From positions 1 to 64,000 of the IMG/VR virus record IMGVR_UViG_3300036945_000641: a stretch of DNA of 64,000 nucleotides; one strand, given 5' to 3'. This DNA is from a virus. Below are positions 51,364 through 64,000 of the stretch, piece by piece. The notes under the pieces were generated by a model that was not told the origin of the DNA, searched no databases, and worked only from the letters and a program-made list of their open reading frames with translations. How positions within the stretch are numbered: position 1 is the stretch's first letter; the number at the start of each line of letters is the position of its first letter. Both the position numbers and the translations under genes were made by a program.

Positions 51364-52113
51364 TTAAGCAGCTGCTTTGGCTTCTGCTTTGGCTTTCTTA
51401 GCTGCACCATCATAGTCTGCAACTTTGATACCACGGCGAGTAAGCAAAGTACGTAGACCACGCTCTGTTTTGTCAACAGCGGCTGCGATTTCAGCAACAG
51501 TCATAGTGCTGATCTTGTCGCCTAGGGCGGTTACAGGGTCGATAGACTCTTTAGCGTGAGATTCACGTTGTGCTGGAATCTTAGAAATTTGACCTTTGCG
51601 GGTCAAGCTCAAAGCCTTACCACGAACGCTAGCAACAGTCTTGTTCAATGCGGTGGCAATGTCTTCGATGAAGCTACCAGTTTCGGCCATGTTGATAAAC
51701 TTGGCTTCTTCTGCGTCAGAGTAAGTACGAGCGATTTCAACTTTGTCAGCAGGCTTTACAGAGCCAGTCAATTCTAGGGCAAGCAATTTGCCTTGGATTT
51801 GCTTAGCAGTAAACTTGCCGCCAGCAAAGTTTTCAGCGATTTGTTTGTATGTCAAGTTACCTGCGTTGGCTTGAACGAAATTGGCAAGATCAGTGCCTTC
51901 GTCAGCGGTAAATGCAGATGTTTTTTCTTTTGCAAGACTAGCGACTTCACGGTCTAATTGACGCAGTTTAGAAGCAACAGAGCGAGTTGTGAAACCGAGC
52001 ATTTCGGCAGCACGCTCAACAGCTTCTACGCTAACAGGGCTTGCATTGCCAACAATGTTCATTAGTTGGTCAACAGCTTCGTCAGACCATTTTTTAGTGG
52101 CTTTTTCAGTCAT
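51364..52113 (-). CDS. DNA-binding transcription regulator (T5 D5-like)
   Basis: Repeated HTH-like units; ending RGLRTLLTRRG..VADYDG; synteny after ligase B. Confidence 0.8.
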   Translation of the reverse strand: MTEKATKKWSDEAVDQLMNIVGNASPVSVEAVERAAEMLGFTTRSVASKLRQLDREVASLAKEKTSAFTADEGTDLANFVQANAGNLTYKQIAENFAGGKFTAKQIQGKLLALELTGSVKPADKVEIARTYSDAEEAKFINMAETGSFIEDIATALNKTVASVRGKALSLTRKGQISKIPAQRESHAKESIDPVTALGDKISTMTVAEIAAAVDKTERGLRTLLTRRGIKVADYDGAAKKAKAEAKAAA

Positions 52114-52867
52114 TTTTATTTTCTTTCAAGAAAGTATTTAAGTTTGTGATTATGGTTATTCCGAGAGACTCGGCTTTTTTGCGTTTTGTACTACCCTTAT
52201 CTTCTTCATCAACTAAATAATCTGTGGTTTTTGTTACAGATTCTACCGCCTTGTATCCTGCGGTTTCCAGTGCTTTATGTGCTTCTGCTTTAGTTTTATA
52301 AGAAGATAATTTTCCTGTAATGCAAATGGTTTTGCAGTCTCCACTCACAACGGAAGTTTTATTGGTTCGAAATGTGAAAGGCAAAAACTCTCGCATTTCT
52401 AAAAAATCAGTTTCTAGCCAAGATAATAAGTTTTGGGTTACTTTATCACCTAAACCTGCTTGTTTACAGGTTTCCTGATTGATTTCGTCTATTGAGTTAA
52501 CAACAAGACAAATCTTAGTCGAGGCAGTATTACCTACAAGAGGAATAGAGAATGAAGCTAGAATAGTGGCCAAATCTGCTGATTTAGCTTTTTCAATCTC
52601 TGTTAATAGCTTTTCAGCTACTTTGGCACTGCCTACGGCATCTACTACTTGGTCTAGTTCAAGATAAAACAATTCTGTAATATCTGCTAACCCAAGTTTT
52701 TCTACTGTACGAGCACCCATACCCTTAATACTAAGAGTCTTACAAAAGTGTTCAACTTTTTTACTAAGCTGAGCACCGCAGGCTGTGTTTCTACAAAAGA
52801 GCTGATCGTTGACCAGTTCAAGAGTATAATTACAGCAAGGACATTCAGTTGGTATTTGGATTCTCAT
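52106..52867 (-). CDS. NAD+-dependent DNA ligase, subunit B (Zn finger, HhH, BRCT)
   Basis: CPCC...C...C, IKGMG and ITGKL...SVTKTTDYLV motifs. Confidence 0.9.
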   Translation of the reverse strand: MRIQIPTECPCCNYTLELVNDQLFCRNTACGAQLSKKVEHFCKTLSIKGMGARTVEKLGLADITELFYLELDQVVDAVGSAKVAEKLLTEIEKAKSADLATILASFSIPLVGNTASTKICLVVNSIDEINQETCKQAGLGDKVTQNLLSWLETDFLEMREFLPFTFRTNKTSVVSGDCKTICITGKLSSYKTKAEAHKALETAGYKAVESVTKTTDYLVDEEDKGSTKRKKAESLGITIITNLNTFLKENKND

Positions 52868-52892
52868 GGTTTCTTTATCAATTTATAAATAT

Positions 52893-52921
52893 ATTATACC
52901 CGATTAAGTAGCTTATAGCAA
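52893..52921 (-). promoter_or_regulatory. Sigma70 promoter
   Basis: TTGCTA-N17-TATAAT upstream of ligase B. Confidence 0.8.
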
Positions 52922-52953
52922 GTCTAAATTTCTAATGCCCTAAGCACAAAATT

Positions 52954-53637
52954 TTATGCTGCACGTACCCAGCCTTTATGCATGTTACGCTTGCCATTTA
53001 AAAGGTCTGTAACTTTAGGTTGTAATAATCCGTGTTCTTTTGCAAATTTTGTAACATACATAATTTCATATATTTTTCCATCTGGGGATAATAACTTAGG
53101 GTACTGTTTGCCCCTATAATACTTTTGTTCTACTCTTATGCGCTCTAATTCTGTATATTCTTTTGGACATACTTGTTTTAACCAAGAATGACTTTCTAAA
53201 GCCGCGATATGTCTAATTGTATATAGCGACACACCAGTAATTTCATGTATTTCTCTTTTAGAGAGAGTAGGGTTTATACTCACTAATAGTCTTAGTACTA
53301 TAATATATTGTTCATTAGTATATTTTGATTGACCGGCAGTTTCTCCATATAATACTGGATTTCCGGCTTCATATAAGGTATTAAACCCATTATCTACAGA
53401 GTCAAATATATCAATAGCCTCTTTTTCATAGATATTTAGCTCAGATATAGCGCACTCTGCTAAAATATCTAGGCTAGCTATGCCATAATTATTATATGCT
53501 GCTTGTAATTTAGGGGCTGCAACGCCTCTATTTAGAGCACTTTTATGTTTTGAAAACCTAGTTTCAATGTCTATTGATTGCCCAATATATACTTTTTTAG
53601 TATTATTGAAATTTAATTTATATATGCCACAAGTCAT
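52954..53637 (-). CDS. GIY-YIG homing endonuclease (free-standing)
   Basis: GIY...YIGQS...R...H, E and N catalytic pattern; AT-rich; sits between the two ligase genes. Confidence 0.9.
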   Translation of the reverse strand: MTCGIYKLNFNNTKKVYIGQSIDIETRFSKHKSALNRGVAAPKLQAAYNNYGIASLDILAECAISELNIYEKEAIDIFDSVDNGFNTLYEAGNPVLYGETAGQSKYTNEQYIIVLRLLVSINPTLSKREIHEITGVSLYTIRHIAALESHSWLKQVCPKEYTELERIRVEQKYYRGKQYPKLLSPDGKIYEIMYVTKFAKEHGLLQPKVTDLLNGKRNMHKGWVRAA

Positions 53638-53697
53638 CTTAATACCTCACATAACATATTGTATCATATAAGGTATTATTTGTCCAACCAAAATTTT

Positions 53698-54651
53698 TTA
53701 TGCGTCAACTTTGTGTAAGATACAGGGAATGATATCACCAGCCTTTATTACAGCTACTGTGTCGCCAATCTGCAAATCCAGCATTTCAATGAAACCAGAA
53801 TTATTAAGAGTAGCACGACTGACAAGGGCATCGCCAATATAAATAGGCTCCAGAATAGCAACTGGAGTGACTTTGCCACTTTTGCCGACTTGCCATTCAA
53901 CATCAAGTAGTTTTGTTTCGACGTGTTCAGCACGTTCTTTTCGGGCATAAGCACCTCTGGGATGTTTGGCTGTATAGCCTAGTTCGTAAAAAGTTTTGTT
54001 GTCGTTAACACGGAATACAACGCCGTCACAAGGATAGATTTTATCCAAGTCTGGTTCATTGATTGTGCCAAAGCCAAAACTGCGAAGTTGATCTAAGTCT
54101 TGATTATACTTGTCAGCTAGGCTAGGCTGTACACCATACGCAAAGAAACTAATTGCTCGTGTACGGAACTCTTCAACAGATTTTAAGTTTAGTGCACCTG
54201 CTGCATAGTTACGAGCATTTTCAATATTGCTTGGAGCAACAATCTCACCAGTAACCTGATAGACGCCCATTACAGGAATAGTGTGCGGTACAAAATTAGT
54301 AGCCAACAACTTTTCAGTAATTAGCTGACCTTCTACCCCATCACCACGTGTAAGACCTCGAACAAGATGACCATCAACATAAAGTAAGCTAATAGCTGCC
54401 CCGTCCAACTTAACACTAACAGCAACATCTCGGATGCCTTCAAGAGGACGTTTTTGATTTTCATCTTCATAGTATTTTTGTAAACTGTACATTTGATAAA
54501 CGTGCTTTTCCACATTGCCGTGTTGCTTAGCACCCACAGCACTGTATCCAATCGAATCAGCAAGCTGATCGAACTGAGCATCACTAATAACTGGAGTACC
54601 AGCATAGTATGCTCGTGCGGCTACATTTAAATATTGTTCTAGTTTATTCAT
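53698..54651 (-). CDS. NAD+-dependent DNA ligase, subunit A (adenylation plus OB)
   Basis: KLDG, TRGDG, GEI, DGVV and KAGDIIP motifs. Confidence 0.93.
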   Translation of the reverse strand: MNKLEQYLNVAARAYYAGTPVISDAQFDQLADSIGYSAVGAKQHGNVEKHVYQMYSLQKYYEDENQKRPLEGIRDVAVSVKLDGAAISLLYVDGHLVRGLTRGDGVEGQLITEKLLATNFVPHTIPVMGVYQVTGEIVAPSNIENARNYAAGALNLKSVEEFRTRAISFFAYGVQPSLADKYNQDLDQLRSFGFGTINEPDLDKIYPCDGVVFRVNDNKTFYELGYTAKHPRGAYARKERAEHVETKLLDVEWQVGKSGKVTPVAILEPIYIGDALVSRATLNNSGFIEMLDLQIGDTVAVIKAGDIIPCILHKVDA

Positions 54652-57708: not shown

Positions 57709-57783
57709 TGGTGCGCTGACTAGGAATTGAACCTAGACTCGATCGATTATGAGTCGACTGCTTTACCATTAAGCTATCAGCGC
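57709..57783 (-). tRNA. tRNA with CAT anticodon (probably Ile2, lysidine type; Met possible)
   Basis: Cloverleaf, GACTCATAATCG anticodon arm, encoded CCA. Confidence 0.85.
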
Positions 57784-58169
57784 GTTTGATTTGCTAAAAT
57801 TTTATAACCTTTAGCGGTTGGGTGAATACGATCTGGACTAATACTAGCAACTGACAATACTACGTCTCCATAGTGTGCTGCAAGTTCTCGTATAAATTGA
57901 TGAAGTTCTGGCTTATTGGGTGGAAGAATCCAAAACACTAGGTCAGCATATGTTAGTTGTCGTAGTGTTTGCAGCTCGCTGCGGGTATTAATTTTACTAT
58001 CATTAGCACCCAAACTAATTATCACAGTTTTAGCAGCTAGATCTTTAGTTATGTGAGTGTTATTCCACGCATAACTATTTATGCCAGTTTTAACATATGC
58101 AACACATTCGGGTCTGTGCTGTGCAATGCCTTGAGCAATGCTATCGCCTAAAATTAAGCACTCTAGCAT
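57777..58169 (-). CDS. SGNH/GDSL hydrolase
   Basis: GDSI, GAND and DRIHP motifs. Confidence 0.85.
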   Translation of the reverse strand: MLECLILGDSIAQGIAQHRPECVAYVKTGINSYAWNNTHITKDLAAKTVIISLGANDSKINTRSELQTLRQLTYADLVFWILPPNKPELHQFIRELAAHYGDVVLSVASISPDRIHPTAKGYKILANQTR

Positions 58170-58304
58170 TTAGTCTTCAAACTCAATGTAGTCTTCTTTG
58201 CCAACGCCACATTCTGGGCACTCAAAATCATCTGGCAAGTCTTGCCAACGACCTTCCGTGGCTTCATCGTGTACATGACCACATACTACGCAAACATATT
58301 CCAT
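58170..58304 (-). CDS. Rubredoxin, 44 aa (not in the ORF track)
   Basis: MEYVCVVCGHVHDE...WQDLPDDFECPECGVGKEDY: two CxxCG motifs. Confidence 0.9.
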   Translation of the reverse strand: MEYVCVVCGHVHDEATEGRWQDLPDDFECPECGVGKEDYIEFED

Positions 58305-58753
58305 TATACTGACTCCCAAACTAGTTGATATGCTTCTGCGTGACGTTTTTCAACTTTTTTCAACGCAGCAAAGCGCTTTTCAGCTTTTGCTAATACAGCA
58401 CTAAACTGTTCCGCGTGTTCTTTAGACTCTGAGGTTTGCTCGCCGAACTCTTTTGCAGAGTCTATGTTCTTTTCAACAATGGCTTGACGCTCAAACTGAG
58501 GGTACATTGTTGTATACTCATATGTTTCGCCTTCAATGGCCATTTCTAAACAACGCTTAGTATCTGGTTTACCGATTAGCAACTCTAAGTGGCCCCAGGC
58601 GTGTTTTAATTCTTGCTGAGCTGTATGCTCAAAATGATCGGCAACATCAGCAAAGCCTTCACTTCTGGCAATACGCGCAAAGTACATATACTTTGTGTAT
58701 GCCATAGATTCGCCTGCTAATGCACCTTCTAAGTTTTGTAATGTTATTGACAT
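58304..58753 (-). CDS. Rubrerythrin-family di-iron protein (no fused rubredoxin domain)
   Basis: NL..A.AGES.A..KY, E..HA, GETYEYT.MYP and E..HA motifs. Confidence 0.9.
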   Translation of the reverse strand: MSITLQNLEGALAGESMAYTKYMYFARIARSEGFADVADHFEHTAQQELKHAWGHLELLIGKPDTKRCLEMAIEGETYEYTTMYPQFERQAIVEKNIDSAKEFGEQTSESKEHAEQFSAVLAKAEKRFAALKKVEKRHAEAYQLVWESV

Positions 58754-59268
58754 TGTTTTTTAACTTCTTCTAGTGAAATTGGAGTAAAATTGATTCTTTC
58801 CATACTTACGTTAAAGTATCGCTTATCGGGTATTTGTGCTAGGTTCAATCTAACTACATTGTTGTGTAGGTGGCCGTGCACATTAAGACCCCAACGTGCT
58901 AGACTTTCAGGATGAATAGGAATATGTGTTAAGATCATACCATCAAACTGATGACTACCACGAATGTCTTTGAAATACTGTGAGTACTGATTTAGAGTAC
59001 ACAAATCATGGTTGCCTTTGACCAGTATCTTTTCACCGTTCATGCGGGCTAGAATTTCTAGGCCCTTGGCATTACGGCTCATACTAACATCGCCTAAGAA
59101 GTATACTTTGTCCGTGGGCTTTACCACACGATTGTGGCAGTTGACCATGTGTTCGTTCATGTGGTCAACGTCATCAAACACGCGTAGCGGAGTACCATCT
59201 TGATTTTTAAACGTCAAGATATTTTTGTGATGAAAGTGATGGTCACTTGCGAAAAAGATGTTTGCCAT
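58744..59268 (-). CDS. Calcineurin-like metallophosphoesterase
   Basis: SDHHF.H, LGD, GNHD, THIP and HGHLH motifs. Confidence 0.9.
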   Translation of the reverse strand: MANIFFASDHHFHHKNILTFKNQDGTPLRVFDDVDHMNEHMVNCHNRVVKPTDKVYFLGDVSMSRNAKGLEILARMNGEKILVKGNHDLCTLNQYSQYFKDIRGSHQFDGMILTHIPIHPESLARWGLNVHGHLHNNVVRLNLAQIPDKRYFNVSMERINFTPISLEEVKKQCQ

Positions 59269-59294
59269 AAGTAGAAATCCCCGAAACAGTAGTT

Positions 59295-59323
59295 ATTATA
59301 CCGTAATCGGGGATATAGTTCAA
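59295..59323 (-). promoter_or_regulatory. Sigma70 promoter
   Basis: TTGAAC-N17-TATAAT. Confidence 0.75.
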
Positions 59324-59333
59324 GTTTAAATTT

Positions 59334-59408
59334 TGGTACGTCGTGACGGGTTCGAACCGCCGACCCTCTCCGTGTAAAGGAGACGCTCTACCGCTGAGCT
59401 AACAACGC
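59334..59408 (-). tRNA. tRNA-Val(TAC)
   Basis: Cloverleaf with encoded CCA. Confidence 0.92.
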
Positions 59409-59546
59409 ATTTATTCTGTCTAATACAAGCTGCTTTTGACTATCACTTAGGGTAGTCCAGTCAATAAGTTCTTGCTTTGTTCTCCAGCAGCCAACACAAA
59501 CGTCATCTACTAGACGGCATATTTTAATACAAGGAGAAGGTGCCAT
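59388..59546 (-). CDS. DUF1289-like Cys-rich protein, 52 aa (not in the ORF track)
   Basis: SPCIKICRL...CVGCWRTKQELIDW; the stop codon lies inside tRNA-Val. Confidence 0.75.
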   Translation of the reverse strand: MAPSPCIKICRLVDDVCVGCWRTKQELIDWTTLSDSQKQLVLDRINALLAQR

Positions 59547-60250: not shown

Positions 60251-60553
60251 TTAAAAGGGTACATCGTCATCGCTAAAGTTTACTTCTTGCACAGAAGGCT
60301 CGTCATACTCTTTAGTATACGGGTCAACTTCTTCAAGCTGATGACGTTGCTGGTTTTTAAAGCCAGCGTGTTCTTTGATTGTTTCTGTTACTATACCTGT
60401 GTATTTCATTAAGCCAGATTTATCTGCCCAAATTAGGTACTCGTAGTGATCTGGGATTACATCGCAGATTCTGCAACCTTGTAGTTTGCCAACACGTATT
60501 GTGTCAGTCATATCTAGTACAGTTGATTTTACATTTTTAAATGATATTGCCAT
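60251..60553 (-). CDS. Hypothetical protein (ExoX C-terminal-like motif, SSB-like DDDVPF tail)
   Basis: GK.QG..I.DV....YL.W motif; start moved to MAISFK. Confidence 0.6.
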   Translation of the reverse strand: MAISFKNVKSTVLDMTDTIRVGKLQGCRICDVIPDHYEYLIWADKSGLMKYTGIVTETIKEHAGFKNQQRHQLEEVDPYTKEYDEPSVQEVNFSDDDVPF

Positions 60554-60634
60554 AAGAAAGCACACTCTAAGGCTGCCGGACTCAAACCAGCTTGATTTAA
60601 TGGATGTGCCACACTAAGTGTGCTTACTTATGGC
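60549..60634 (-). ncRNA. Stem-closed RNA cassette (18-bp inverted repeat, 1 mismatch)
   Basis: GCCATAAGAAAGCACACT / AGTGTGCTTACTTATGGC around a 50-nt loop. Confidence 0.55.
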
Positions 60635-60722
60635 GGAAAGCAGAGGAGTCGAACCCCATCCCCGTTAGGAGAACCTGGTTTTCAAGGCCAGTCGCAGGAC
60701 CATCCCCGCTGCATTACTTTCC
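60631..60722 (-). tRNA. tRNA-Ser(TGA), 8/4-type fold
   Basis: 8-bp acceptor stem, 4-bp T stem, long variable arm, G73, CCA. Confidence 0.85.
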
Positions 60723-60728
60723 ACGTTT

Positions 60729-61334
60729 TTATTCTTGTTTTTCGGCCTCTAGCTGAGCGTGTTTCTCGGCTACAGCGCTAAGTCGTTTTACAACTTCATC
60801 TGAAGTCATCCAAATATCTTTGTTGTGTAGCATTGAGTCAATTTCTTCGTGTGTTAAGAAATCTGCGTAAACTTCACGCATAAAGTTTTCTGACCAGCGA
60901 CGTTCAAACTGTAGTTGGTCGTACATTTCTCCACCTTTGCCAAACACGCCTGCACTATAGTTGTGAAACATAAATAGTGAGTGTGGGGTTACTTCTTGCT
61001 GATGACCATGTAAGAAGATCATTGTTGCAGCACTCATGCAAGCGCCTTCAACTGAAGTAACAATAGTGGCTTCGGTCTCGCCCATAACTCGTAAAAATTG
61101 TAGTGTGGTATAAAGATCACCACCACCTGAGTTAATGTAGATACGAACTGTGTCAGCACTGGTGGCATTGCGAATTGTGTCAAACCACTCAATGTACTCT
61201 TGTGGCTCACAAATTTCACCACTCAAGTAGAACTCATATAAGCGTCCGATTGATTTAGAAAAGCTATTACCATTCTTGTCCGTTTCAAACAATTTAGGGT
61301 CGAGAATGTTTGTCTTTTTAGTTGTCATTTTCAT
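60729..61334 (-). CDS. ClpP-family serine protease
   Basis: YINSGGGD, ACMSAAT (Ser), FMFHN (His) and KDIWM (Asp) motifs. Confidence 0.88.
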   Translation of the reverse strand: MKMTTKKTNILDPKLFETDKNGNSFSKSIGRLYEFYLSGEICEPQEYIEWFDTIRNATSADTVRIYINSGGGDLYTTLQFLRVMGETEATIVTSVEGACMSAATMIFLHGHQQEVTPHSLFMFHNYSAGVFGKGGEMYDQLQFERRWSENFMREVYADFLTHEEIDSMLHNKDIWMTSDEVVKRLSAVAEKHAQLEAEKQE

Positions 61335-61355
61335 CTTATACTCGTTTATAAATTA

Positions 61356-61544
61356 GGGCCAGTATTCTGTTACGAGGAACTGGCAAAACCCTAAGCAGCG
61401 TTTAGGCTGCTAATGCGTACGTGTTATCGTTTGCAGTTATTTTTGTTTTGCTGTTACGACCAGGAAACCCCAGTCCTACGGCTGTCGCATTGCCGAGTTG
61501 TCTGCTTTAATACTCTTAGCCTAATCGAAAGCCAGGTCAGCCCC
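61356..61544 (-). ncRNA. ssrA: tmRNA coding piece (tag ANDNTYALAA at 61434-61402)
   Basis: Begins GGGGCTGA...TTCGA; resume context AAATAACT-GCA; tag ends YALAA-stop. 3' boundary approximate. Confidence 0.92.
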
Positions 61545-61633
61545 ATCAAAAGCACTCCTAGTGTTCTTAGGTCGGGAATTCCAGTCCTCAGCCGTATGAG
61601 AAACAGCTTACATACTACCCTACTCAATGCTTA

Positions 61634-61695
61634 TGGTGGAGCTGGCGGGAGTCGAACCCGCGTCTTAAACTCTTTTCTATCGGCTTCATACAACC
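61634..61695 (-). ncRNA. ssrA: tmRNA acceptor piece (permuted gene)
   Basis: GACGCGGGTTCGACTCCCGCCAGCTCCACCA pairs with GGGGCTG, giving G3-U70; AGTTTAA pairs with TTAGGCT of the coding piece. 5' boundary approximate. Confidence 0.9.
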
Positions 61696-61805
61696 ATACT
61701 ATAACACACTACCCTTGCTGGGTGCTCCCAGTTACCCGCGGAAGGTGTGCTCGAGCTTACTCCGCATATATGCATTAAGTGGCGAGTAGTGTGTTATAGT
61801 ATGGT
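61693..61805 (-). ncRNA. Stem-closed RNA cassette (perfect 20-bp inverted repeat)
   Basis: ACCATACTATAACACACTAC / GTAGTGTGTTATAGTATGGT around a 73-nt loop with two hairpins. Confidence 0.6.
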
Positions 61806-61876
61806 GCCGAATGTCGGGATTGAACTGACGACCTACCGCTTACAAGGCGGTTGCTCTACCACTGAGCTAATTCGGC
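61802..61876 (-). tRNA. tRNA-Thr(TGT)
   Basis: Cloverleaf with encoded CCA. Confidence 0.93.
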
Positions 61877-61955
61877 GTTCCAACTGTGACCTTATGCTCT
61901 TGGCGTTGGCCCTTGAGCAGCCCACATTTTTAAAGTCGTCTGGGAACTGACTAAT

Positions 61956-62030
61956 TGGAGTACGTGACAGGAGTCGAACCTGCATAGTACGGATTTGCAA
62001 TCCGCTCCCTAGCCATTCGGGTCACACGTA
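61956..62030 (-). tRNA. tRNA-Cys(GCA)
   Basis: Cloverleaf, U73, CCA. Confidence 0.9.
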
Positions 62031-62032
62031 CA

Positions 62033-62257
62033 TTAAATTTTGTTTTTAGTAACTAAAGCACTAAAAGTATTAAACGTCTGTTCAAACTTTAAACCATAGA
62101 TGGACTCTAAACCCGAGAGATAGTTTGAGATTTCATCAGTGGTCATTTCACCACCATCAGGCTTGCCTTCTAGTACATACAAGTTTAACAACTTAATATC
62201 TTCTACAACATTCCAGCAATTCATAATTTGCTGTTCTAGATCAAATCTGTCTGTCAT
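62033..62257 (-). CDS. Conserved phage hypothetical protein
   Basis: DRFDLEQQIM.CW.V.EDI motif; AAGGA RBS. Confidence 0.7.
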   Translation of the reverse strand: MTDRFDLEQQIMNCWNVVEDIKLLNLYVLEGKPDGGEMTTDEISNYLSGLESIYGLKFEQTFNTFSALVTKNKI

Positions 62258-62387
62258 TTTGTAGTTCCTTTAGTTTTTGTTTGAGTGCTATGTTTACAAA
62301 TTCACTTAGTGTGAGGTTTAATCTTTTTGCGGCTTGTTTTACTTGTTCTAGTAAATGTGCGTCAATATGTATTGTAATTGTTTTCAT
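62241..62387 (-). CDS. Ribbon-helix-helix (CopG-like) protein, 48 aa (not in the ORF track)
   Basis: MKTITIHIDAHLLEQVKQAAKRLNLTLSEFVNIALKQKL: beta strand followed by two helices. Confidence 0.65.
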   Translation of the reverse strand: MKTITIHIDAHLLEQVKQAAKRLNLTLSEFVNIALKQKLKELQNDRQI

Positions 62388-62388
62388 A

Positions 62389-62859
62389 CTAATTTGCAAG
62401 TACAAATTTTAATCGGTCAGCTGCATAACTTGCAGCAAATGCTTTGGGCTTTACCTGTGCGTCAATATTGCAAGTGCCTTTGATATATCCCACAGCTTGT
62501 TGCACTACTGCTGAACTCTTATATCGCTCATTGGGATTAATATCTAGGTGAACTTCTACGTAACGATCTTCTAGTACATCAGATAGTTCGTGAAATAGAT
62601 CACTTACTTTATAAACTTCTTGCATTAGTCGCATTGCTGGTTTATTGGCTTTTTGATCCCAGTCACGCTCTCTGTGAACGTCACCAAAAATCTTACAGCC
62701 ATGGTTTCCATCAATGTGTACTACAATAGCTAAAGTATAGTCTGCATACCATTTACCATGTACTTGTACTCGTTGGCTGTCAGCACCTAAATAAATTTTA
62801 GTTTCTGGCGAGCTTTGCCGAATATAGTCTTTTACTTCTTGTAGATTAAATTTACGCAT
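62389..62859 (-). CDS. RNase H-like YkuK-family protein
   Basis: YLGADSQ, RL..EV, EVHLDIN and A.YAAD motifs. Confidence 0.8.
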   Translation of the reverse strand: MRKFNLQEVKDYIRQSSPETKIYLGADSQRVQVHGKWYADYTLAIVVHIDGNHGCKIFGDVHRERDWDQKANKPAMRLMQEVYKVSDLFHELSDVLEDRYVEVHLDINPNERYKSSAVVQQAVGYIKGTCNIDAQVKPKAFAASYAADRLKFVLAN

Positions 62860-62872
62860 AATTTTAGTTGTT

Positions 62873-62949
62873 TGGTGGGTCTAGAAAGATTCGAACTCTC
62901 ACACCTCAGCTTCGTAGGCTGGGACACTTTCCAGTTGTGCTATAGACCC
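62873..62949 (-). tRNA. tRNA-Arg(ACG)
   Basis: Cloverleaf with CCA. Confidence 0.88.
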
Positions 62950-62955
62950 AATATG

Positions 62956-63029
62956 TGGCACGGGGACTAGGGCTCGAACCTAGAACGACACAGTCAAAGT
63001 GTGTTGTGTTACCATTACACCATCCCCGA
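62956..63029 (-). tRNA. tRNA-Gln(TTG)
   Basis: Cloverleaf, unpaired 1-72, G73, CCA. Confidence 0.9.
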
Positions 63030-63035
63030 ACAATT

Positions 63036-63114
63036 TGGCTCCGTATCTGGGGTTCGAACCCAGCTAATCATTGATTAACAGTCAAGTCCGTGCACCTAGC
63101 TCGGATTCTACGGA
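63036..63114 (-). tRNA. tRNA-Asn(GTT)
   Basis: Cloverleaf with enlarged D loop, G73, CCA. Confidence 0.85.
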
Positions 63115-63119
63115 ATAGA

Positions 63120-63275
63120 TTACCAATGTCTGATAACACCGGCAACAATAAATATATTAGTTATGATATAGCACATAACAATTGCTGTTCTTATAAGGGC
63201 TACTTTATCAGCCTGAGAATCATCCCCTGCTTTTTCACCTAAGGCTTTTGCCCATAATGTCCAGAGTTTTTTCAT
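63120..63275 (-). CDS. Small membrane protein
   Basis: MKKLWTLWAKALGEKAG...ADKVALIRT...IVAGVIRHW, a family common in phages. Confidence 0.7.
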   Translation of the reverse strand: MKKLWTLWAKALGEKAGDDSQADKVALIRTAIVMCYIITNIFIVAGVIRHW

Positions 63276-63376
63276 ATTTAATTCTAGTGCTCGGTGCGCC
63301 ATCCCCGAGTGAGCTTCAATACCAGAGAAGGATAGTATCTACACACTATAGCGCGTTTTCACTAGAATTAAATATG
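63273..63376 (-). ncRNA. Stem-closed RNA cassette (perfect 17-bp inverted repeat)
   Basis: CATATTTAATTCTAGTG / CACTAGAATTAAATATG around a 70-nt loop. Confidence 0.55.
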
Positions 63377-63486
63377 CTGGTTACTTTATCCAGCGCCAAT
63401 TATCGAATGGCAGTTCAATTGCTCGGACGTCAGCAGGAACAACCCTTGCTCTAACCGTTTACGTCTAACGAACCTAAGGCAGGTCT

Positions 63487-63562
63487 TGGCGGGTCTAGGG
63501 GGTAACGATCCCCACTCTTCGGCAGTGACAGTGCCGTGTGCGTCCATGAACACTTTAGACCC
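63487..63562 (-). tRNA. tRNA-Asp(GTC)
   Basis: Cloverleaf with atypical T loop ATCGTTA, G73, CCA. Confidence 0.85.
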
Positions 63563-63566
63563 AAAT

Positions 63567-63650
63567 TGGTACGAGAGAAGGGACTCGAACCCTTAATCCT
63601 TGCGGCGGCAGATTTTAAGTCTGCTGTGTATACCATTCCACCACTCTCGC
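63567..63650 (-). tRNA. tRNA-Leu(TAA)
   Basis: Type II cloverleaf with CCA. Confidence 0.93.
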
Positions 63651-63654
63651 GTAA

Positions 63655-63782
63655 ACCATATAAAAACACTTTGCTAGTACTTGAATCTATGACAACCCTA
63701 CTTCATGGCCGATTCTTGCTTTAGTCGACTTGGCAAGCATTGCGGAGTTCCACTGTAGTTGTTCAAAGTGTTTTTATATGGT
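63655..63782 (-). ncRNA. Stem-closed RNA cassette (perfect 19-bp inverted repeat)
   Basis: ACCATATAAAAACACTTTG / CAAAGTGTTTTTATATGGT around a 90-nt loop. Confidence 0.6.
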
Positions 63783-63871
63783 GGATTAGGTTGGATTCGA
63801 ACCAACAGTGTTTTCCCAGAGGGGACGGATTTACAGTCCGCCGATGCACACGCCATAGCATCAACTAATCC
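63779..63871 (-). tRNA. tRNA-Tyr(GTA)
   Basis: Type II cloverleaf with a 5-bp D stem (GATGC/GCATC) and CCA. Confidence 0.88.
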
Positions 63872-63887
63872 ATTTGTTTAAGAACTA

Positions 63888-63916
63888 ATTATATCAAGAA
63901 ATAGCTCTTGAGTCAA
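63888..63916 (-). promoter_or_regulatory. Sigma70 promoter within the tRNA cluster
   Basis: TTGACT-N17-TATAAT with TG. Confidence 0.8.
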
Positions 63917-63926
63917 ATCAGAAATT

Positions 63927-64000
63927 TGGCATCCCGAGAGGGACTCGAACCCCCACTTACGGTTTTGGAGACCGCAGTGCTGCCATTACACTATCGAGAG
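63927..64000 (-). tRNA. tRNA-Trp(CCA)
   Basis: Cloverleaf ending GCCA; the 5' end coincides with the window edge. Confidence 0.88.

Follow-up and report, generated by a model that had tools for sequence, protein, structure and literature searches.

Stable RNAs are already known as a kind of object in the tRNA regions of phages. The GenBank record of phage T5 (NC_005859) places eight misc_RNA features in the tRNA array (RNAIII, RNAIV, RNA2H, RNAI, RNA1, RNA2, RNA3 and RNAX), five of them labelled "stable RNA with unknown functions" and three tRNA-like or putatively tRNA-like. According to the part of a cryo-EM study of OLE, GOLLD and ROOL on which we draw, ROOL and GOLLD are encoded by phages and prophages, often near tRNA islands, and covarying loop palindromes are taken as evidence for symmetric kissing loops (PMC12286853). 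Here we describe a family of RNA cassettes in a freshwater phage, the IMG/VR virus record IMGVR_UViG_3300036945_000641 (73,239 nt, 69% complete). We analysed its first 64 kb (the window). Four non-coding segments in its tRNA array, cassettes A to D, are each enclosed by a long stem. New are the conserved carrier stem, anchored in the CCA end of the preceding tRNA, the exchange of the enclosed cargo at sites that stay fixed, and the palindromes that covary in cargo loops. The array extends beyond the end of the window. Since all tRNAs lie on the minus strand, as do all cassettes, the reading was done on this strand.

Judged by analogy, the cassettes are architectural counterparts of T5 RNAIII, RNAIV and RNA2H. 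The T5 stable RNAs are likewise non-coding, measure about 70-170 nt, lie within the tRNA array on the same strand as the tRNAs and have their ends paired in helices of 14-22 bp. By folding, these closing helices amount to 20 bp for RNAIII, 22 bp for RNAIV and about 14-17 bp for RNA2H. The RNAIII helix runs from the GCCA of the preceding RNAI to the 5' end of tRNA-His, and the RNA carries an apical palindrome, UCUAGA. The annotated ends of RNAIII lie inside its 20-bp precursor stem and leave a 2-nt 3' overhang; those of RNAIV lie 13 bp into its 22-bp helix. In contrast to the cassettes, the T5 stems are without the CCAUAU consensus. T5 RNAIII (locus L102, 4285-4390, minus strand) is 95-100% identical across 283 phage records, and its covariation is therefore unreadable. 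Of the 40 records listed, some leave RNAIII unannotated and the others place a "hypothetical protein" over it. As for the record studied here, its PHROG matches (siphovirus major tail protein, PolA-type polymerase, SbcC, DnaB and ribonucleotide reductase) indicate a T5-like phage.

Long closing stems in the tRNA array

A first-pass annotation of the window had described four near-perfect inverted repeats around non-coding segments. All four were recovered, three of them perfect and one with a single mismatch. Cassette A (63655-63782) fills the spacer between tRNA-Tyr and tRNA-Leu and is closed by a perfect 19-bp stem (63655-63673/63764-63782, 19 nt, 100%, 90 nt between), whose 3' arm ends 4 nt before tRNA-Leu. 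Cassette B (61693-61805) occupies the spacer between tRNA-Thr and the acceptor piece of the transfer-messenger RNA (tmRNA). Its repeat (61693-61712/61786-61805, 20 nt, 100%, 73 nt between) forms a closing stem, P1, of 20-22 bp. Cassette C (63273-63376) has a perfect 17-bp stem (63273-63289/63360-63376, 17 nt, 100%, 70 nt between), and cassette D (60549-60634) an 18-bp stem with one U-U mismatch (60549-60566/60617-60634, 18 nt, 94%, 50 nt between). As minus-strand RNAs, the cassettes gave folding z scores of -4.18 (A), -5.60 (B), -5.78 (C) and -4.90 (D), with 0/200 shuffles as good. Eight stems of at least 17 bp with loops of 25-220 nt were found in the 16.2-kb tRNA array, against two in the other 57 kb of the record. 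In 100 dinucleotide shuffles of the array, the mean was 0.52 stems and the maximum three; a chance origin of the eight stems is thus excluded. Past the window three more cassettes follow, one between tRNA-Lys and tRNA-Ser, one between tRNA-Pro and tRNA-Leu, and one elsewhere.

The 5' arms of cassettes A and B share 4 nt with the ACCA ends of tRNA-Tyr(GUA) (63779-63871) and tRNA-Thr(UGU) (61802-61876), so that these ends are also the start of the arms. The 5' arm of cassette D starts in the GCCA (60631-60634) of a class II tRNA-Ser(UGA) (60631-60722). Anchoring after the Ser, Thr and Tyr tRNAs had been proposed before and held up here, with tRNA-Ser placed by hand reading of its cloverleaf. This tRNA was not called by ARAGORN, and the Rfam tRNA-Sec model RF01852 matched it at 60635-60722 below threshold (36.8 bits versus a cut-off of 47). 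On the other side of cassette A, tRNA-Leu(UAA) (63567-63650) follows immediately 3'.

Directly after cassette B starts the acceptor piece of a two-piece, permuted tmRNA (61346-61744; tag ANDNTYALAA). The intervening segment of a permuted tmRNA resembles a cassette in that it directly follows a CCA and reaches to the 5' end of the RNA piece behind it, and in relatives it has stems of 22-23 bp that extend the acceptor stem. The cassettes differ in parting two independent RNAs, not two halves of one. A similar closing stem had been claimed for the segment of the window as well. This claim was not confirmed: the segment has no significant stem here (z +0.19, with 113/200 shuffles as good), and closing stems of 22-23 bp occur in some relatives.

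A conserved carrier stem

For comparison, 45 related IMG/VR loci were fetched via the ClpP-like gene inside the array (numbered with an L). A hairpin scan of these loci and of the record's own array yielded 289 hairpins with stems of at least 13 bp. A filter for CCAUA-like/UAUGG-like ends kept 71 of them, 62 unique, and three of the record's own that the filter had missed were added by hand, giving 65 elements. The other 218 hairpins stand outside the family counts, and some are clearly different structured elements. From the 65 CCA-anchored arms the carrier consensus CCAUAUUUUAGCACACU was obtained, i.e. C-C-A-U-A-U-U-U-U-A-G-C-A-C-A-C-U, with which the motif CCAUA-N5-RCAC of the first-pass annotation agrees. 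Up to position 16, the carrier stem is paired in at least 60 of the 65 elements. The base of the stem is poorer in GC (14%, positions 4-11) than the distal part (39%, positions 12-19). Stem lengths are 17-22 bp in the window and reach 27-28 bp in relatives.

The non-canonical pairs of the stems carry information on the strand. Using a strand-symmetric detector on 58 family hairpins, G-U outnumbered A-C by 47:7 on the tRNA strand, and the ratio differs between family and non-family hairpins (odds ratio 3.05, p = 0.022). Based on this excess, the carrier duplex is best described as selected at the RNA level, on the tRNA strand. Selection on the duplex had been suggested from changed yet paired bases in the copies of the window; it is borne out by the covariation, by the G-U to A-C ratio and by the occurrence of one carrier around at least nine unrelated cargos.

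A second family of long hairpins was observed in the relatives downstream of tRNA-Met. Its stems of 24-27 bp start with UUAUACUUAAAUUAAA and close loops of 141-205 nt (for example L004 1435-1627, L008 876-1134 and L033 1375-1591; the search covered the relatives).

Cargo families and their exchange between sites

Clustering of the 65 loops gave 33 groups, 13 of which have at least two members. No two of the record's own seven cargos fall into one cluster. Conversely, a single site can hold many cargos: directly before the tmRNA acceptor piece, the carrier stem is present in 20 of 28 unique sites, around nine unrelated cargos. One cargo was found in at least five contexts. The cargo of cassette B, assigned to cluster 0, follows tRNA-Thr in some places and elsewhere lies between tRNA-Asp and tRNA-Cys or upstream of the ClpP-like gene or of other open reading frames (ORFs), and its sequence is kept under at least three different carrier stems. 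Presence varies too: tRNA-Leu and tRNA-Asp are separated by a cassette in L008 and by a 4-nt spacer in the window. Homologous loops are conserved in structure, with covarying helices in the families of cassettes B and C. These comparisons show the cargos to be conserved, covarying RNA families that stand at differing positions in differing phages. The proposal of a conserved carrier around variable, structured cargo is thereby upheld by the covariation and by the nine cargos at one site.

The remaining cargos of the window differ in how widely they occur. For cassette A a single orthologue was found (L008, 3320-3447), whose 90-nt cargo is the same, and no further family member was found among the 119 stretches listed from viral contigs. 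The cargo of cassette C belongs to a conserved family of 15 members with two covarying hairpins, in which 16 of the 29 predicted pairs show double-sided changes. The apical loop of its first hairpin, CCUUCUC (63325-63331), is CU-rich; relatives have UCUCCUCCCU or UCCUCCUUU, loops that in our own reading are anti-Shine-Dalgarno-like. The cargo of cassette D was found in four near-identical copies (its own, L006, L019 and L072). It contains a hairpin, GCUGG-UUUGAGU-CCGGC (60575-60591), which to our eye resembles a T-arm.

The carrier stem is also present in a cultured relative. Synechococcus phage BUCT-ZZ01 (L103) has four cassettes with a CCAUA-type carrier stem, one of them before its permuted tmRNA. 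Its tRNA-His (L103, 2169-2272) is enclosed by a 23-bp leader-trailer helix; thus a tRNA can itself be cargo. The permuted tmRNA of BUCT-ZZ01 has the tag ANDETFSMALAA, and the phage carries a suppressor-like tRNA(CUA).

Covarying palindromic loops

The 18 sequences of cluster 0 fit a three-helix structure, with 98.7% of the cells of the alignment paired. In slid-partner controls at most 48.7% were paired. Double-sided changes were counted in 24 of 36 pairs, a level that 0 of 500 shuffles reached. By helix, they occur in 14/22 pairs of P1, in 2/6 pairs of P2 (GCGGAG/CUUCCGC, 61738-61765) and in 5/5 pairs of P3 (CUGGG-AGCA-CCCAG, 61718-61731). A covariance model of the cluster (R1) gave a single strong hit, at 131.5 bits, in the array of the record itself, and scored the other cassettes weakly, at 20-35 bits driven by the stem. 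A search of 185,579 species genomes with the cluster 0 pattern gave 0 exact matches.

P2 carries a 15-nt loop, UAA-GCUCGAGC-ACAC, in which GCUCGAGC (61749-61756) is a palindrome and a candidate symmetric kissing-loop site for homodimerisation. All 17 distinct cluster 0 P2 loops recovered by the pattern contain a perfect palindrome of at least 6 nt, the length in this loop being 6-8 nt. Ten different hexamers occur in these loops, and together with ACCGGU in L009 the palindromes number 11. By an analytic bound for uniform bases, the chance of a palindrome per 13-16-nt loop is at most about 0.13-0.17. When the palindrome positions were treated as pairs, 3/3 covaried and 96.1% were complementary. 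Adjacent bases cannot pair within one chain, and we therefore read the palindrome as the mark of a symmetric kissing loop between molecules. The self-duplex of the cassette B loop was calculated at -17.1 kcal/mol. Cofolding was also tried; its "dimer" energies reflected stem swapping and were not used. In summary, the loop data point to cassette B forming homodimers or higher assemblies via symmetric kissing loops.

A hairpin in cassette A (CUUGC/GCAAG with a 13-nt loop, 63715-63737) holds the palindrome AGUCGACU (63723-63730), another candidate kissing loop. The self-duplex of this loop was calculated at -12.7 kcal/mol, and the L008 orthologue retains GUCGAC, a comparison of two sequences only. 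Cassette A probably also assembles via its palindromic loop. Two more cargo families have covarying apical palindromes (GUGCAC/GUCGAC; CCCGGG/ACUAGU). Taken over all 65 cargos, apical palindromes are modestly enriched: they occur in 31, compared with 19.4 +/- 3.75 in mononucleotide shuffles (maximum 29 in 200).

Comparison with other described RNAs

A search of Rfam 15 at the gathering threshold and at E <= 5 returned only tRNA, tmRNA and chance-level rows, and no family on any cassette. Self-cleaving ribozymes, ROOL, GOLLD and OLE were among the families without an Rfam match in the cassettes. One row for RF04321 (63683-63806, 16.6 bits, E 3.8) was dismissed as chance-level. The first-pass annotation had recognised no named family. 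As regards Rfam this is correct, but the GenBank record of T5 already annotates RNAs of like architecture. A published description of the cassettes, or of the function of the T5 stable RNAs, was not found in a search beyond whose reach the T5 work of the 1980s lies.

With OLE, GOLLD and ROOL, cassette B shares the signature of a covarying palindromic loop. The cassettes are far smaller, at about 90-130 nt versus 580-800 nt or more, and cassette oligomers are a prediction from sequence.

Bacterial Y RNAs such as YrlA combine a closing stem with a tRNA-like module. The cassettes are alike in having their ends paired in a long stem and, in cassette D and in cluster 8, T-arm-like hairpins. Unlike in the Y RNA systems, no Y RNA family matched in Rfam at E <= 5, and the record, 69% complete, gave no match to TROVE/Ro (PF05731). 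The phi29 packaging RNA (pRNA) and the dimerisation initiation site of HIV-1 both join a helix of paired ends to loops that covary so as to keep intermolecular pairing. They share neither homology nor context with the cassettes, and a packaging role is not indicated.

RNase III processing helices are described for rRNA operon stems, for the maturation of the T4 tRNA cluster and for sites in T7 early mRNA. They resemble the cassette stems, in that a long leader-trailer duplex surrounds a stable RNA in a polycistronic transcript. In contrast, the helix described here begins in the CCA of a tRNA, carries a conserved sequence and holds a small RNA instead of an rRNA.

A processing model and its alternatives

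With moderate confidence we favour the reading that the cassettes are small RNA genes within a polycistronic tRNA transcript, and that their stems are RNase III-type helices from which end-protected RNAs would be released. The cleavage, its enzyme and the stability of the product we infer. According to the model, a helix of 17-27 bp would pair the leader of the gene downstream with the trailer of the stable RNA upstream, starting within the CCA of the latter. An RNase III, most likely that of the host, would make a staggered cut near the junction of the AU-rich base and the GC-richer distal half. The upstream tRNA would then keep a short, AU-rich trailer that is easily melted and trimmed to the CCA. 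The same cut would free the leader of a downstream tRNA or, where an ORF follows, unmask its start codon or ribosome-binding site. The cargo would leave with both ends in a GC-richer helix of 8-12 bp and so persist as a stable RNA. In form, the stems match RNase III helices, being near-perfect duplexes of about two helical turns that are conserved as duplexes. In the part of a review that we cite, E. coli RNase III is described as participating in T4 tRNA maturation (PMC4810235). The transcript carrying cassettes A and C likely starts at a strong sigma-70-like promoter upstream of tRNA-Tyr (63888-63916, minus strand; TTGACT-17-TATAAT with TG, 11/12), which was identified by a consensus scan only.

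Several points weigh against this model. PF14622, the RNase III family, matched nothing in the 73 kb of the record (69% complete), and the model therefore requires an enzyme of the host; the RtcB families, searched in the same incomplete record, were not found either. No CCA precedes cassette C. The hairpins outside the family likewise have more G-U than A-C (55:25), so that the asymmetry may in part be mutational, and all such counts include orthologous elements, which are non-independent. In T5, the overhang of RNAIV is about 1 nt and not 2, and the T5 RNA ends were taken from an annotation whose experimental basis was not seen. Homology of the cassettes to any T5 RNA was not found by sequence or by model. 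A blastn search with 60400-64000 gave no T5-like record among the best 40 of 621 matching records, the listed matches outside protein genes being tRNA and tmRNA genes only, and R1, from the only family modelled, had no match in the T5 locus L102. Finally, the sequencing data for this phage are Logan contigs, which show neither RNA ends nor transcription. More than half of the sampled words were present in one sequencing run only. One contig from an RNA library, belonging to a relative (about 88% alike), covers 63112-63633, and no conclusion was drawn from it.

The stems might serve only in the processing or insulation of the neighbouring tRNAs and ORFs, with the loops as tolerated filler. The stem is indeed the constant part, nine unrelated loops share one site, some loops measure only 25-31 nt, and a tRNA can occupy such a helix. 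We consider this explanation unlikely, because loop families are conserved across phages and positions with covarying helices, 11 palindromes stay palindromic in one loop, and cluster 0 is kept under at least three carrier stems. It is rather improbable that the cassettes are mobile at the DNA level, either MITE-like or shuffled by recombination, with the arms as terminal inverted repeats or flanks and the RNA structure secondary. Arm sequence is conserved around different cargos, presence varies (the L008 Leu-Asp cassette versus the 4-nt spacer), and one cargo has at least five contexts, all of which would fit mobility. Against it stand the G-U count far above A-C on one strand and the lack of a target-site duplication when the filled Leu-Asp site is compared with the empty one. 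Near-identical copies per genome are also missing, R1 having one strong match and the seven cargos sharing no cluster, and no transposase was seen in the part of the record's ORFs that was scanned. Recombination via the conserved arms could nevertheless explain the swapping of cargos, and it is compatible with processing helices. Some stems border on translation starts. The AUG at 60551-60553, inside the 3' arm of cassette D, is the likely start (M-A-I-S...) of ORF 60251-60553; the UGG of this start pairs with the CCA of tRNA-Ser, and AUGGC is kept there in relatives. Another AUG, at the base of the 3' arm of cassette C (63273-63275), likely starts the ORF 63120-63275, which encodes a membrane-like protein of 51 aa and whose start, ATGAAAAA, is conserved in L012 and L072. 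The 3' arm in L028 ends in a Shine-Dalgarno-like AUAUGGAGGA, 5 nt before an AUG. That the stems are translational switches, masking the Shine-Dalgarno sequence or start codon of the ORF that follows until they are cut or melted, is nonetheless very unlikely as their main role, since cassettes A and B and most cassettes of relatives precede tRNAs or tmRNA and not ORFs; switching could therefore be a secondary use only. From the AUGs in the arms of D and C and the Shine-Dalgarno sequence ending the arm of a relative, unmasking of translation is likely such a side use of the stems.

The first-pass annotation had also named a nearby YkuK-like nuclease as a possible cutter. This RNase H-like protein (PF04308; gene at 62389-62859, minus strand) is encoded inside the array and is 75-95% identical in 20 of the 45 related loci, and the carrier stem is conserved in sequence besides its pairing. 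Homologues occur in other large phages, among them BUCT-ZZ01 with its tRNA array. Gene and cassettes do not co-occur cleanly, however, and the suggestion was not borne out. At least 12 of the 25 loci without a copy of the gene in the stretch fetched (about 6 kb on each side) have cassettes, L015 has the gene and no cassette, and the 30 of 79 matching records listed include no T5 record, although T5 has RNAs of like architecture; no Escherichia or Salmonella phage appears in the tally of organism names. Cleavage by this protein is accordingly a very improbable alternative to RNase III, and we know of no activity for the PF04308 family. The homologues, at 31-55% identity, belong to large Vibrio, Cronobacter, Xanthomonas, Ruegeria, Rhizobium and Synechococcus phages. 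Promoter or terminator functions of the arms, and a chance origin of the repeats, are barely credible. TGnTAAAAT-like strings are present in some 3' arms, but no promoter-like site was seen in the arms on the tRNA strand, strong sites lying elsewhere. The stems lack a T-run behind them, the loops measure 25-146 nt, and chance is contradicted by the eight stems versus 0.52 in shuffles.

Neighbouring features

At the DNA level, blastn against cultured phages found no close cultured relative, and the matches listed were to tRNA, tmRNA and PF04308 genes only. Stenotrophomonas phages among these matches differ in the arrangement of tRNA-Thr and tmRNA and were set aside.

Within the array, a second tRNA missed by ARAGORN lies at 63037-63115 (minus strand); it is tRNA-Asn(GUU)-like and is called Asn in relatives. 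The ARAGORN call "tRNA-His(atg)" at 61634-61728 is the acceptor piece of the tmRNA, miscalled. The tmRNA itself is phage-encoded within the tRNA array and of betaproteobacterial type. The 110-nt spacer between tRNA-Asp and cassette C (63377-63486, minus strand) has conserved counterparts in L026 and L072. The hairpin GCUGG-AUAAAGUAA-CCAGC forms its end, and the fold of the spacer is no better than that of shuffles (z -0.24).

Protein genes are interspersed with the tRNAs. In the middle of the array (62033-62384, minus strand), a 47-aa ORF of ribbon-helix-helix type (CopG/CcdA-like) overlaps the start of a 74-aa ORF that belongs to no known family; the pair is possibly a small regulator or antitoxin-like pair. 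Small accessory genes stand amid tRNAs at 57777-59546 (minus strand), with DUF1289 (59388-59546) as the sole Pfam match. From their translations, others appear rubrerythrin-like (58304-58753), rubredoxin-like (58170-58319) and metallophosphatase-like (58744-59268, without a Pfam match). An NAD-dependent DNA ligase-like gene (52106-54651, minus strand) apparently consists of two ORFs (53698-54651 and 52106-52867), separated by a GIY-YIG-like ORF (52954-53637), as read from the translations only.

Implications

The T5 record labels its RNAs as of "unknown functions", and ROOL and GOLLD, also located beside tRNA islands of phages, likewise have no known role. The clade described here supplies a comparative set for such RNAs, with dozens of cassettes and several covarying cargo families. 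It also offers a common design, a CCA-anchored carrier helix with swappable cargo, and for one family a testable property, the symmetric kissing loop with its 11 interchangeable palindromes.

Tentatively, and with low confidence, we propose that the carrier stem is a portable "socket" by which these phages exchange and express diversifying small RNAs. Several of these RNAs would self-assemble by private palindromic kissing loops, as miniature counterparts of ROOL and GOLLD. The rapid turnover of cargos at given sites might then reflect an arms race, in which the cargos would be decoys or sponges against host defences directed at tRNAs or ribosomes, and T5 RNAIII, RNAIV and RNA2H might belong to the same system. 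Roles of the cargos as decoys, guides or anti-defence RNAs are speculation. The design itself suggests that phage tRNA operons double as platforms for the expression of small RNAs.

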